A stretch of 57,859 nt of DNA. Source: a virus (Duplodnaviria; Heunggongvirae; Uroviricota; Caudoviricetes). Made by a program: the position numbers. Positions 24,001-30,000 of the stretch are shown here, piece by piece. The first letter of the stretch is position 1, and each line of letters begins with the position of its first letter. The stretch lies in IMG/VR virus record IMGVR_UViG_2880406838_000004; one strand, given 5' to 3'.

Positions 24001-27000
24001 CGTCCCGGGCATGAAGTTGTCGAAGGAAAAATGCGACCAGGTTAACGCCATTGAGCGTGATAAGGCGCTGGCATGGGTGGAGAAAAACATCAAAGTGCCG
24101 CTGACCGAACCCCAGAAAGCGGGGATCGCGTCATTCTGTCCGTACAACATTGGTCCCGGTAAGTGTTTCCCGTCGACGTTTTACAGACGAATTAATGCAG
24201 GTGATCGAAAAGGTGCCTGCGAAGCGATTCGCTGGTGGATTAAGGACGGTGGCAGGGACTGCCGTATTCGCTCAAATAACTGTTACGGTCAGGTATCCCG
24301 TCGTGACCAGGAGAGCGCGCTGGCGTGCTGGGGAATCGACAGATAAGCAGAATATTTTGCTGAAAAATGAGGTTTGCTTACATGGATTGATAACACGAAA
24401 TCCTGCAAATTGGCAAAATGTAAGTGAATAAAGTCAAAACAGTTGTTTAACACTCAGGCACCGTAATGATGCCTTTGTCATTTCTGCGCATCTCACGCGC
24501 ATCTCACAACACAGAACCTTTCAGGATGACCCTTGAGGATACCGGTTTGGCTGTCGGTGCCTTTCTGTGGGCTGGATTCCTGTGAGACAAGGTTCATCAC
24601 TAAAAGGAAATAACCGATGAATATGATGGCCGTGCCGTTTCACGGCAACTCTCTTTATGTAGTTAACCATAATGGCGAACCATACGTTCCCATGAAACCT
24701 GTCGTTGCGGGGATGGGGCTGGCCTGGCAATCACAGTTGGCTAAGTTAAGACAGCGTTTTGCGTCAACTATAACGGAAATCGTTATGGTTGCTGAGGATG
24801 GGAAACAACGCAATATGGTGTCCATGCCACTTCGAAAACTTGCCGGCTGGCTACAAACCATTAATCCCAACAAAGTAAAACCCGAAATCCGCGATAAGGT
24901 CATCCGGTATCAGGAAGAGTGCGACGATGTTCTTTACGAGTACTGGACGAAGGGTTTTGTCGTTAATCCCCGTAAAATGAGCGTGATGGAAGAACTCAAC
25001 CAGGCTTGTGCTGACATGAAACGGGATAAAAACATTGCCAGTGTGTTTGCTACCGGGCTGAATGAGTGGAAACAGGTTAAAGCCGCGCATGTATCAAAAA
25101 TCCGTACGCTGGTAAATGAAGCGAATATGCTGATTGATTTTGTCCTGGCTGATACAGGCAAAGGGAAAATAACAAAGGCGGATTGATGGGGTGGCTAATG
25201 ATATCAGATAAACTCATAACGCTGGTGAAGAGCCTCTGTGTACTTGTCGGCATTTCATTTTTAGTCATGCTGGTTGCCATTTTCTTTTCCACCGCCTGGC
25301 GAGTCCTGACGTTATCGGGACTGGTGGGGTGAAAGAGAGATGAACCGTGTTCTGTGTGTGGTGATTATTGTCCTGGCGGTTGGCTGTGGTGCGCTGTGGC
25401 TGGCAACAAACCATTACCGTGACAACGCGCTCACCTACAAAGCGCAGCGCGATAAAAAAGCCAGAGAGCTGGAACAGGCGAATGCCACCATTACTGACAT
25501 GCAGGTGCGCCAGCGTGATGTTGCTGCGCTCGATGCAAAATACTCGAGGGAGTTAGCCGATGCGAGAGCTGAAAATGAAACTCTGCGTGCTGATGTTGCC
25601 GCTGGTCGTAAGCGCCTGCGGATCAACGCCACCTGCTCCGGTACCGTGCGTGAAGCCACCGGCACCTCCGGCGTGGATAATGCAACCGGCCCCCGACTGG
25701 CAGACACCGCTGAACGGGATTATTTCATCCTCAGAGAACGGTTGATGACAATGCAGAAGCAGCTGGAAGGGGCACAGGACTATATCCGCACTCAGTGCCT
25801 GAACTAAGTTTTGCTGATGCGCCGTATCGTCGCCGTATTCCTGCATTAACAGAGACCGCAGCCCGACAGGGAGACTCCTCTGCGAGAGTGTGCGGGGATA
25901 ATCAAAAACGATACACACCGGGGTTTACCGCGTAAACGGAGCGCGGCGTTCTCCCCTCATGGTCGCCCGTCCGGTGCGATGGTGGAAGAAACTGGAATCT
26001 GTTCAATAAAAAAACTGCCGTGTTGGAGTCACAGCAGTAATGTACTGATTGGGTAGAAGATTATTATTGTTATGCTTTATTTTTATTCTATATGGCTGAT
26101 TATTTCAATTCGGAATTAATACAGCTAATGTCTGTGAGTTTTTATAAATTCAGCAATATAAAGAAATAGTTATATGAACAGCCATCGCAGAGCATACTGT
26201 GTATCATTCTTTTTTATAGTCAACTGACGGGCATATTTTATGTCTGCTGCCAGCTCCCGGCGGCAAGATTCAATGACCCACGCAGAAAAATTTTCTGAAC
26301 CTTTCTGGTCAAGAGCGATGTTAATTTGTTCAATCATCTGGTTTGGAAATCGGATGTTGCGGGTTGTTGTTCTGCGGGGCCGGTTTTTCGATGACATTTT
26401 CTTTCCTCTGGTGACAAGCTATATGGCGAGGATTTTACATGGCTGTGCTTCGTACGTTACCGGGCAGAATCAAAACTCTGAACACCCGGCGGGTGAATAT
26501 TCTGAAGGGTGAACAGCGTCGTGTCAGTGGCAGTGCACGTGTTTCCCTCAAGCGTCATATCTGGCTCAGGGATGCCGGGCAGTGCTGTCACTGTGGTCGT
26601 GTGGTTGACCTCTGTGACAGTGAACTCGATCACCGAATTGCACTTCAGTTCGGTGGTGGTAATGAGGAGACGAATCTCTGGACCCTCTGTACTGAATGCC
26701 ATCGACAAAAGTCTGCTCGTGAAGCGGCGGGTGGTATGCCGGACCCGACGCTGCCGGAGGTGTCCGGAGGTCATGGCAGGGCAGACGATATCATCGGACT
26801 GTGACCCGCCCCGGGGGGGATCATCCGGCGAAAAAAAACGATCGCCCCGGACACCGCCCCCCGTCTCATGCAGAGAAAAAATTCCTGTTTCAGGCCAGTT
26901 AACATGTTAACTGGCTGCCCGGGCATTTTTTCGGTTTTTATCTTTATTATTCAGTTTGTTGTGCGAAAAAAATGTTAACTGGCTTTTTCAGCAAATGTTA

Positions 27001-30000
27001 ACCAGGCAGCAGTTAACATTTGCGGCATGAGACGCCGGGAAAAATGGGCTGAACCATACCCGGCTGAGTGCGTTCTGGACCCGGGAGGAGGCTGTGCTGA
27101 CAACGCAAAAACGAAAATTTGCGCTGGCGCTCATGTCCGGGAAAAACAAAACAGCGTCAGCCCTTGCCGCCGGTTATTCGGCGAAGACAGCCAGGGTTAA
27201 AGGCTCGCAGCTGGCAAAAGATCCGGAGGTGCTTGCGTTTATAGCCCGTAAACAGTGCGAGACGGTGGAGGTGGATGAGGTTCCTGTTTACCGGCAGAAA
27301 AAATCAGAGCCGGAGGATAAACCCCGTCGCCGTGAGGCGGCTGCAATACCACAGCCGGACGAAACAAATCCGGAGATGCCACCGCCCGTGGTGATATCTC
27401 CTGGTATTGAGTATATGGAGGACGGTCTTCCCGATCCGGTGAAAGCGATGGGGCGTCTTCTGGTGGAGAACATTAATACCGACCCCAGGCTGGCGCTGGA
27501 TGCGGCTTATAAGCTGGCGCAATTCACGCACCACAAAAAAGGGGATGCCGGTAAAAAATCGGCAAAAGGTGACGCGGCGAAAAAAGCGGCTAACCGTTTT
27601 GCGGTGCCACCACCACCCCGCCTGGTGGTGAATAATGATAATGAGGAAAGCGGATGATACCTGTGTGGAGCACGGCATGTCCGGACTGGGCAGAGCGCCT
27701 GAAAAAGGGGCTGTCGATTATTCCGGCTCCGATTTATCCGGACCAGGCTGCACATGCACTGGCGATTTTTAAACAACTGCGGATTGTGGATGCACCGGGT
27801 AGCCCGACATTCGGGGAGTCCTGTGCAGCGTGGGTGTTTGACCTGGTGGCGGCCCTGTTTGGCTCCTACGATGCGCAGACCGGTGTACGCCATATCAAGG
27901 AAGTTTTTATCCTTATCCCCAAGAAAAACTCGAAGTCCACGCTGGCCGCGGGGATCATGATGACGGCGCTGTTACTGAACTGGCGGCAGGCGGCGGGCTA
28001 CACCATTCTGGCCCCGACCGTGGAGGTGGCGGCTAACGCCTTCAACCCTGCCAGGGATATGGTACGACGGGACGATGATCTGGATGACCTCTGTCAGGTG
28101 CAGACACATATCCGGACCATCACCCATCGGGTGACGGACACCACCCTGAAGGTGGTGGCAGCCGATCCGAATACGGTGTCCGGTATCAAGTCCGTGGGGA
28201 CACTGATTGATGAACTGTGGCTGTTTGGCAAGCAGTACAAAGCGGAGGACATGTTACGTGAAGCCATCGGCGGGCTGGCTTCACGTCCGGAAGGGTTTGT
28301 GGTGTACACAACCACCCAGTCGAATGAACCGCCTGCCGGGGTGTTCAGGCAGAAACTGCAGTACGCCCGGGATGTCCGTGACGGCAAAATTCATGATCCG
28401 CACTTTCTGCCGGTGATTTTTGAGCATCCTCCTGAAATGGTGGAGAGCGGTGAGCACCTGCTGATGGAAAACCTCGCCATGGTTAACCCGAATCTCGGTT
28501 ATTCGGTGGATGAGGCCTTTCTGTACCGGGAGTATCGTAAAGCCCGGGAAGCCGGGGAAGAGACTTTCCGCGGTTTCATGTCAAAACACGCCAATGTGGA
28601 AATCGGTCTTGCCCTGCGTTCTGACCGCTGGGCAGGGGCGGATTTCTGGGAGCAGCAGGGCAGGCGCGTCAGCCTGGACGATATCCTGCAGCGCGCTGAT
28701 GTGGTGACGGTGGGGATTGACGGCGGGGGCCTGGATGATCTGCTGGGAATGTACGTGACTGGCCGTGACAGGGAAACCCGCGAATGGCTGGGCTGGGGCC
28801 ATGCCTGGGTGCATGAAACCGCGGTGGTCAGACGGAAGAGTGAGGCATCCCGGTTTCAGGATTTTGTGGCCTGTGGAGACATGACGATTGTCCGTCGGGT
28901 CGGGGATGACACGGCGGAAGTGGCGGAGTATGTGCGTCGTATTCATGAGGCTGAGTTACTGGATCATATCGGTATTGACCCGTCAGGTGTGGGGCAGATT
29001 CTGGATTCACTGGCGGAAGCCGGGATCCCCGATGAGAGTGTGGTGGGGATAAGCCAGGGCTGGAAGCTGGGCGGGGCCATCAAAACCACCGAGCGCAAAC
29101 TGGCTGAAGGGGTGCTGATTCACGGTGATCAGCCCCTGATGGCCTGGTGTGTCGGTAATGCCCGGGTGGAGCCTAAAGGTAACGCCATTCTTATCACCAA
29201 ACAGGCCAGCGGACGGGGAAAAATTGACCCGCTGATGGCGCTGTTCAATGCGGTCTCCCTGATGTCCCTTAACCCGGAACCGAAAAAGAAAGAATATGCG
29301 GTTTTTTTCATATAACCCTGCTCACCCTGTAACCATCACGAACCGCTCCGGCGGTTTTTTTATTTTCAGGAGGCTGATGTGACTCTTAAACGGGCCTGTT
29401 CCCTGCTGACGGTGAAATCCTTCAGTGAGGATGAACGGGTGATCACCGGGATTGCGTCAACGCCTTCTCCGGATCGGGATGGTGACATCCTGGAGCCGGA
29501 GGGCGCGGAGTTTGGCAGTGCGATACCGTTTCTCTGGCAGCATGACCATTCCCGCCCGGTGGGGCAGTGTACGGTGCGCCGGGTCAGGGAAGGGCTGGAA
29601 ATCACGGCAACACTGGTGAAGCCCGTACCGGATATGCCGTCGCAACTGGCTGCCCGGCTGGATGAGGTCTGGGCGGCCATTAAGACCGGGCTGGTCAGGG
29701 GGCTGTCCGTGGGCTTCCGTCCCCATGAATACACCTTTCTGGACGGAGGCGGACTGCATTTTCTGCGCTGGGAACTGATGGAGGTGTCTGCCGTCACCGT
29801 GCCCGCGAATGCGGAATGCACCATCCGGACCATTAAATCTTACGACCGCCCGTTTTCTGCCGCGTCCGGCAACCGGAAACCGGTGGTGAAAATCGCATCT
29901 TCTGCCGGCGCTGCGGCACAGTCAACAACCGTTTTTCATAAGGAAAAGACCATAATGAATATTGGCGAACAGATTAAAAGTTTTGAAAACAAGCGTGCAG

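Follow-up and report, generated by a model that had tools for sequence, protein, structure and literature searches.

The 57,859-nucleotide window analyzed here, from the IMG/VR virus record IMGVR_UViG_2880406838_000004, contains a lambdoid prophage in which a noncoding gap separates an HNH endonuclease gene from terS, the gene for the small terminase subunit (TerS). Comparison with related phages makes it likely, in our judgment, that positions 26813 to 27021 of this window are an HNH-assisted cohesive end (cos) site that is cut at 26855 to 26864, and that the GTTAAC boxes in it form a cosB-like array read by TerS. A preliminary description of the window had put forward GTTAAC-centered palindromes in the gap as a candidate terminase recognition and cleavage region, reasoning from the HNH-terminase pairing of HK97-like phages. 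That reasoning applies at this locus, where Pfam verified both flanking genes, and the gap does hold cos. The cut falls outside the palindromes, since the ends of relatives lie 30 bp upstream, but by comparison the palindromes fit the recognition half of the proposal as cosB-like small-terminase boxes.

The position of the cut comes from three relatives. Escherichia phage Lys8385Vzw, which was induced from an O103:H11 Shiga toxin-producing Escherichia coli strain, shares 96.6% identity with the window across the gap, all five GTTAAC boxes included. In a published PhageTerm analysis (Zhang et al. 2021, PMC7946995), it was assigned to the cos phages, with CGCCCCCCCT as its 3' cohesive ends. These ends map inside the homologous gap and not elsewhere, so that the virion-end test proposed in the preliminary description came out in favor of its interpretation. 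Its GenBank record ends in ...ACACCGCCCCCCCT (longer, GGACACCGCCCCCCCT) and starts with CTCACGCAGAG (longer, CTCACGCAGAGAAAAAATTCC...GTTAACATGTTAAC), so that the record junction reads ...CCGCCCCCCCT|CTCACGCAGAG. The record of Burkholderia phage Bcep176, whose large terminase (TerL) is ~58% identical to that of the window, is linear, its two ends carrying HNH and terS, respectively, and the 10 nt CGCACGTTCC is written at both record ends, directly before CTCACGCGCAG / CTCACGCGCAGAAAATTTTCC. The record of phage vB_E175 begins at the homologous place. By homology to these ends, the window is predicted to be nicked at 26864|26865 on the top strand and at 26854|26855 on the bottom strand, in a GC-rich block that the preliminary description had not singled out. 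Because the ends of all three relatives fall in this block, upstream of the first palindrome, the palindromes are not the cut site. The terS side would be the left end, packaged first.

Headful (pac) packaging is not indicated, as close and distant relatives alike have defined cohesive ends. Besides matching the TerL proteins of Bcep176 and vB_E175 (55 to 59% identity), whose linear records are both broken between HNH and terS, the TerL of the window has distant relatives in Staphylococcus, Paenibacillus, Gordonia, and phiBT1 phages, groups that we take to be 3'-cos phages. On that assumption, the protein (PF03354/PF20441) is placed in a clade of 3'-cos phages. Where cos lies in this phage lineage has been published before; the Lys8385Vzw paper gives only the 10-nt end, and not the G-run, core, or GTTAAC boxes described below (PMC7946995).

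The boxes themselves are much as the preliminary description had them. The perfect 20-bp palindrome CCAGTTAACATGTTAACTGG lies at 26895 to 26914 and extends to 22 bp, and the two further inverted elements containing GTTAAC both exist as perfect 12-nt inverted pairs, AAATGTTAACTG (26970 to 26981) with CAGTTAACATTT (27010 to 27021) and GCAAATGTTAAC (26991 to 27002) with GTTAACATTTGC (27012 to 27023). GTTAAC starts at 26898, 26906, 26974, 26997, and 27012; these five copies in 120 bp compare with 14 in the remaining 57.7 kb (Poisson P of ~1.7e-10 per 120-bp segment, or ~8e-8 allowing for all segments). Other GTTAAC-rich spots were set aside as chance, one being a pair at 4409/4417 inside the host gene potD and another at 13169, at the end of a ydaT-like gene. 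Taken together, five ATGTTAAC boxes, S1 to S5, occur in both orientations at +34 to +157 from the nick and upstream of terS, as in a cosB-type element.

Few other signals were found in the gap. An Rfam search gave no match at an E value of ≤1, and promoter- or terminator-like matches were no commoner than in shuffled sequence. A weak terminator-like hairpin with a 5-bp stem (26919 to 26934) does not amount to a terminator or structured RNA. The single-strand folding score of the gap (z = -4.7) comes from pairing of the G-run with a C-run and from the inverted repeats of the boxes; we set it aside as a by-product of symmetric protein sites, since the DNA acted on here is double stranded and neither Bcep176 nor HK97 keeps the G/C pairing. 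The consensus for integration host factor (IHF), WATCAANNNNTTR, has no match within one mismatch in 26805 to 27093, and no lambda-like IHF site is detectable there. Small open reading frames overlapping the gap are interrupted by indels in relatives, and for that reason a 24-codon frame from the palindrome ATG (26904) was rejected as a gene.

We then compared columns 26884 to 27021 among 76 distinct relatives of the window class (class A). None of the 38 columns in box cores varies (11 of them were fixed by the retrieval pattern and the remaining 27 were free to vary), compared with 48 of 100 noncore columns (Fisher P = 2.5e-9). A second line of evidence comes from E. coli FUJ80154 (NZ_AP024687), in which an island of ~9.5 kb lies between cspD and clpS (locus L012, about 2900 to 12600). 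Its genes encode an integrase, a helix-turn-helix (HTH) regulator, a YlcI/YnfO-family protein, an Icd-like protein, a DUF4222 protein, a RepA-type helicase, and a ClpP-type protease-capsid fusion, and there is no terminase or HNH gene among them. The island ends with a 77%-identical copy of cos (L009, 801 to 974) that keeps 38 of 38 core positions, compared with 64 of 101 noncore positions (P = 7e-7). Homology of this copy to the window runs from the G-run through the preserved cut-site block to box S5, the last conserved element of cos, and ends immediately beyond it. Retention of exactly this stretch is the pattern that would be expected of a satellite borrowing the terminase of a helper. 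No island gene lies downstream of the copy, making an operator role unlikely there. The variant occurs in 44 of 5,426 complete E. coli genomes. A Ccm-like mechanism, based on a capsid homologue, was considered for the island and is unsupported, as its capsid-protease fusion has no detectable similarity to that of the window.

A natural exchange of the motif was found in one IMG/VR locus (L214/L217; IMGVR_UViG_2816332609_000004; L214, 1042 to 1215), which we call class C; it is the only contig with TGTACA-swapped boxes found in IMG/VR. It has a window-like cos core and a TerL that is 74 to 79% identical, and all of its boxes carry TGTACA in place of GTTAAC. Its 20-bp perfect palindrome, CCTATGTACATGTACATAGG, is centered at +40|+41 as in the window, and beyond it are two ATGTACAT boxes, 70 and 92 bp away from that center, compared with 72 and 95 bp in the window. 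Box spacing is thus kept within 2 to 3 bp although the spacer sequences are unrelated.

More broadly, the motif follows the type of TerS. Where TerS starts with M(A)LTxQKRKF...AGYS (Terminase_2 HTH), GTTAAC-like boxes lie at or near the terS start, as in Citrobacter (GTTAACGTGTTAAC); in Serratia, Burkholderia, and Pseudomonas (TGTTAATGGCKTTAACA); and in Corticimicrobacter (two ATTTGTTAACC repeats). A MAGVKG-type TerS N terminus goes with AATCAAAT repeats, and a different HTH, seen at two Sphingomonas-type loci, goes with GTGCGAAC/GTTCGCAC repeats. The C-terminal region of TerS is common to all of these N-terminal types. The comparison therefore indicates purifying selection on boxes relative to spacers and a change of motif with TerS type, with co-variation that is not clean within the family. 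Codon use points the same way: where a box sits on the terS start (class B, described below, Burkholderia, and Pseudomonas), the Leu codon is TTA, even at ~61% GC and even though TTA encodes 1 of the 49 leucines of Bcep176 terL; in classes A and C and at locus L297, where the terS start and the box are apart, the codon is CTG or CTC. This use of TTA suggests that at the box the DNA sequence is constrained, beyond the protein sequence. Because of the invariant cores, the satellite-like copy, the motif swap, the co-variation with TerS type, and the codon use, we regard the boxes as probable sequence-specific protein sites within the packaging signal and as candidate TerS sites, most likely serving as docking sites for the small terminase.

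The cut-site part of the element is conserved differently from the boxes. Columns 26870 to 26883 are invariant among the 76 class A sequences (26870 to 26879 being part of the retrieval pattern). When one genome per bacterial species was scanned with CAYGYASAGAAAAAATYCC, 27 loci also had a run of 6 to 10 G, 48 to 56 nt before a CAYGYA core, and this combination is constant across Enterobacterales (Gammaproteobacteria), Betaproteobacteria, and Alphaproteobacteria. Of 26 loci checked by tblastn, 15 adjoin TerL relatives of 51 to 87% identity. The G-run is also present in Bcep176 and in the satellite-like copy, and HK97 (NC_002167) has G9-ATCA 42 nt before its right end, with ACCGCC in the terminal bases. 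Given that the TerS of HK97 is dissimilar and its HNH protein barely similar, yet the G-run and end are alike, the cut-site part goes with TerL and possibly with HNH. These observations suggest that the G-run is a candidate cosQ-like, nuclease-positioning, or TerL/HNH recognition element. A strict five-box scan of the same one-genome-per-species collection returned nothing, its E. coli representative evidently being without this prophage.

Some core copies stand apart from any terminase. Several loci (L232, L269, L275, L278, L291, L299, L326, and others) have the G-run and a CACGCAGAGAAAAAAT core, but no TerL, TerS, or HNH relative was detected there within the stretch examined. L269 is in the same Azonexus genome as a terminase-bearing copy, L280, and several Polaromonas-type core copies share the following sequence, AAACCTAGCATTCATGCGGGTT. 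The terminase-less copies may be cos sites of further satellites.

Class B relatives, comprising Salmonella phage FSL SP-016 and loci of Salmonella, Citrobacter, Kluyvera, and Enterobacter, show a simpler layout. Their HNH-terS gap is only ~100 bp, and the CATG at the center of their palindrome contains the terS start codon (GGAGGGTGTAAAC-ATG-TTAACAG), with the center again at +40|+41. The window class has ~180 extra bases from the palindrome to a new GTG start, and these carry S3 to S5. Boxes S3 to S5 may have arisen from a duplicated terS 5' region: by a hand count, the stretch from 26995 onward (ATG TTA ACC AGG CAG CAG TTA ACA TTT GCG) has ~20 matches to the terS 5' end in the first 29 to 30 nt. 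The distal boxes probably raise affinity or specificity, and extra specificity would matter in enterohemorrhagic E. coli (EHEC) genomes with up to seven related cos sites.

We propose the following mechanism. On concatemeric DNA, TerL and the HNH protein would make the two staggered nicks, leaving 10-nt 3' overhangs CGCCCCCCGT, and packaging would run rightwards with the terS end first. The G-run and A-tract core would be the part of the site that tracks TerL. TerS oligomers, through their N-terminal HTHs, would occupy an array laid out as the palindromic pair at +40, a ~57-bp AT-rich spacer, and three more boxes; the spacer, whose length rather than sequence is conserved, is probably bent. 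So bound, TerS could anchor and orient the terminase beside the nick site and mark the DNA as "self," and the TerS-DNA complex would place TerL and HNH on the cut-site module, the role of HNH being modeled on HK97. After nicking, translocation would proceed into terS.

Several points weigh against this account. The relatives' end positions, the conservation pattern, and the co-variation are observed or published; TerS as the reader of the boxes, and a need for all five, are what we infer from them. Likewise, the end coordinates derive from homology rather than from the window prophage's own virions. Class B has a single palindrome, meaning that S3 to S5 are not universally required. The co-variation of motif with TerS type rests on a handful of loci per type, and at the level of residues it is uneven: the recognition helix has V in class A and S in class B, yet both have GTTAAC, while class C, with N at that residue, is without it. 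Finally, the portal gene of this prophage is annotated as frameshifted, so the prophage may not package itself, although its cos could still serve co-resident relatives. The portal region (31528 to 34274) is split into two open reading frames of 454 and 461 aa with a 4-nt overlap, and the record of bovine E. coli E2855, which carries a prophage identical to that of the window, annotates the portal as a frameshifted or partial pseudogene.

Alternatively, the boxes could be part of cos but read by a protein other than TerS, such as HNH, the DUF3950/YlcI protein encoded nearby, or a host architectural protein. We think this unlikely, though it draws on the unclean co-variation between box motif and TerS HTH residues within the family, on the comparative nature of the case for TerS, and on the presence of a YlcI/YnfO-family gene both beside the window cos and in the satellite-like island (L012, 10023 to 10328). 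The DUF3950/YlcI protein looks ribbon-helix-helix-like, judging from its sequence. A reader other than TerS sits poorly with a motif type that follows the TerS N-terminal module across phyla and with the overlap of box and terS start codon seen in relatives from class B, Burkholderia, and Pseudomonas. For HNH in particular, divergence does not track the motif (the class C protein is 56% identical to that of the window, and class B proteins are 59 to 67% identical), and for a host architectural protein, the gap has no IHF consensus.

A second possibility, which we consider improbable, is that the boxes act mainly as operators for terS and the head genes, for example in TerS autoregulation, and not as packaging signals. 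The class B palindrome does overlap the terS ribosome-binding site and start codon, and the gap of the window is long (289 bp), with its weak terminator-like hairpin. Yet in the satellite-like copy all boxes are retained at the very edge of the island, where no island gene follows that they could regulate, promoter- and terminator-like matches are no commoner than in shuffled sequence, and the palindrome is fixed at +40 from the nick, whereas its distance to terS ranges from 3 to 190 bp across the classes.

It is less probable still that S3 to S5 are functionless relics of terS 5'-end duplications (ATG TTA AC encoding Met-Leu-Thr). The palindrome center aligns with the class B terS ATG and the 26995 stretch weakly resembles the terS 5' end, as noted above, but variation is confined to the spacers and spares the cores, every box persists in the 77%-identical copy, and in L214 all of them changed together. 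Boxes that arose by duplication could still have a function today. That the GTTAAC palindrome is itself the cleavage site, as a perfect palindrome near terS might suggest, we discount almost entirely, because the mapped or record ends of the three relatives all lie upstream of it and the palindrome sequence differs between classes while the cut-site block is conserved.

Returning to the TerS-read cos site, we offer a broader proposal that we regard as possible, if not quite probable, namely, that this cos is modular. A conserved cut module (G-run, 10-nt end, and CAYGCAGAGAAAAAAT) would travel with TerL and HNH, while the TerS N-terminal domain and its boxes (GTTAAC, TGTACA, AATCAAAT, or GTGCGAAC) would have been exchanged or retuned several times. 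In the E. coli lineage, the terS start would have been pushed ~190 bp from an ancestral box that overlapped it, giving rise to the five-box array, and terminase-less integrase islands (the cspD-clpS island of 44 complete E. coli genomes and perhaps the second, terminase-less Azonexus cos copy) would copy the unit for packaging by these prophages. If true, this would reveal that Gram-negative bacteria have their own cos-type satellites, a group not yet described and comparable to SaPIbov5.

Compared with known systems, the element offers new detail in a known kind. Stx1-converting Lys8385Vzw has the same HNH-gap-terS-terL order and the same five boxes; its end differs from that of the window by one substitution (CGCCCCCCCT versus CGCCCCCCGT), and the window holds an integrated prophage at potC/potD without an annotated stx. 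In HK97, TerL cleaves cos with stimulation by the HNH protein (PMC9410871, citing Kala et al. 2014), and the site recognized by TerS is close inside the left end, at +15 to +29 (Chechik et al. 2024, PMC11331095). HK97 resembles the window in having HNH (gp74) at the right end, terS-terL at the left, 3' overhangs, a G-run with ATCA 42 to 45 nt before the end, and ACCGCC in the end. It differs in that its TerS has no detectable similarity and its HNH protein barely any; moreover, HK97 TerS reads a single 15-bp site with the DNA threaded through its ring, whereas the window has an HTH-type TerS and five boxes from +34 to +157. The phages phi12 and phiSLT are HNH-dependent cos phages, and their cos is copied by SaPIbov5, a terminase-less satellite with a capsid gene (PMC5052747, PMC8569155). 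The FUJ80154 island is analogous to such cos-type Staphylococcus aureus pathogenicity islands, although phi12 and SaPIbov5 are from a Gram-positive system and the sequences are unrelated.

Two further comparisons concern the layout of the boxes. Like the window, lambda has an upstream element, a nick site, boxes in two orientations, and the small-terminase gene in this order, and it packages towards the terminase genes. The lambda cos consists of cosQ, cosN, and cosB, with R3, I1, R2, and R1 bound by gpNu1 and IHF. Unlike the window, it has 12-nt 5' overhangs, no HNH protein, a TerL of another family, the winged-helix protein Nu1, and an IHF site. The pac sites of SPP1 and SF6 are bound by G1P, a Terminase_2-family TerS, and package by headful with boxes on both sides of the cut. 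They share with the window the HTH family of TerS (PF03592) and several short boxes parted by bent AT-rich DNA, and they differ in being pac rather than cos type, the boxes of the window all lying on one side. None of the papers that we found describes the array of five boxes, the G-run, the constant +40 position of the palindrome, a motif-swapped relative, or terminase-less copies of this site. HNH-assisted cos packaging is already known, and as a kind of element this site is expected phage biology. Nevertheless, the full packaging signal, beyond the 10-nt end, tells which DNA these phages can mobilize and accounts for the way in which a resident helper could package defective prophages and satellite-like islands that carry the same signal, and the natural one-box, five-box, and swapped-motif variants are a compact test system for an HTH-type TerS on a multibox site.

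TABLE 1 Elements of the proposed cos site and neighboring genes in the window
Feature	Position	Strand	Remarks
G-run GGGGGGG (26813-26819), then ATCATCC	26813-26826	+	45 nt upstream of top-strand nick
Predicted 10-nt 3' cohesive end CGCCCCCCGT (cosN)	26855-26864	+	Homology to Lys8385Vzw, Bcep176, and vB_E175 ends
Left-end core CTCATGCAGAGAAAAAATTCC, A-tract block	26865-26885	+	+1 to +21
Perfect 22-bp palindrome GCCAGTTAACATGTTAACTGGC, boxes S1 and S2	26894-26915		Center at +40|+41 from nick
AT-rich T-tract spacer, S2 to S3	26916-26966		Many variable columns; length kept
Box S3, AAAAAATGTTAAC	26967-26979	+	Invariant in 76 distinct relatives and in satellite-like copy
Box S4, AAATGTTAAC	26993-27002	+	Invariant in 76 relatives and in satellite-like copy
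Box S5, GTTAACATTT (AAATGTTAAC on - strand)	27012-27021	-	Invariant in 76 relatives
DUF3950/YlcI-YnfO family gene	26170-26397	-	Just upstream of HNH
HNH endonuclease gene, 121 aa	26439-26804	+	Pfam PF01844, E 1.4e-6; so annotated in E2855, 2851, and BP-4795
terS, small terminase	27094-27657	+	Pfam PF03592 Terminase_2, E 4.5e-8, above curated cutoff
terL, large terminase (ATPase and nuclease)	27654-29315	+	Pfam PF03354 and PF20441
Peptidase_S78 and Phage_capsid fusion	29379-31316		Pfam

The surrounding genes agree with this assignment (Table 1). The local order is lysis genes, DUF3950/YlcI on the minus strand, HNH, the gap, terS, terL, and the S78 protease-capsid fusion; by Pfam and annotation, HNH directly upstream of cos, terS, and terL makes an HK97-like module, with an HK97-fold capsid, prohead protease, and portal downstream, though the portal is flagged as frameshifted. 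By analogy, the HNH product would be a packaging accessory nuclease encoded upstream of cos. Residues 2 to 57 of TerS form an N-terminal SF6/SPP1-type HTH (PF03592), and the protein weakly matches the DNA-binding domain of SF6 TerS (4zc3 and 2cmp). Its gene starts with GTG, just downstream of GGGAGGAGG.

The prophage lies beside potC/potD. Window positions 1 to 5700 hold the host genes lolE, nagK, cobB, potD, and potC, and the prophage integrase (5723 to 6841) adjoins potC. No stx gene is annotated over window positions 1 to 48549, the part of the identical E2855 record that was inspected. The HNH-terS stretch is 96 to 98% identical to those of the Stx-converting phages 2851, BP-4795, and 1717 and of many Stx1a/Stx2c phages, and the family includes many Stx1- and Stx2-converting phages of EHEC. 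The family is present in 1,283 of 5,426 complete E. coli genomes, about a quarter, with up to seven copies per genome; five places in the E2855 genome match the HNH-terS gap.

Two minor observations concern the cut-site region. A 15-nt inverted repeat, 87% complementary, pairs the cut site (CCCCCCGTCTCATGC, 26857 to 26871) with GCATGAGACGCCGGG (27025 to 27039) after S5; it is probably incidental, not being kept in EC100 or the satellite-like copies. In the PPompW prophages of several EHEC strains, homology to the window is interrupted at window position ~26815, in the G-run, and ISEc20, an IS110-family element, is annotated at that point. There it splits HNH and the G-run from the cut site, which would probably disable the PPompW cos.

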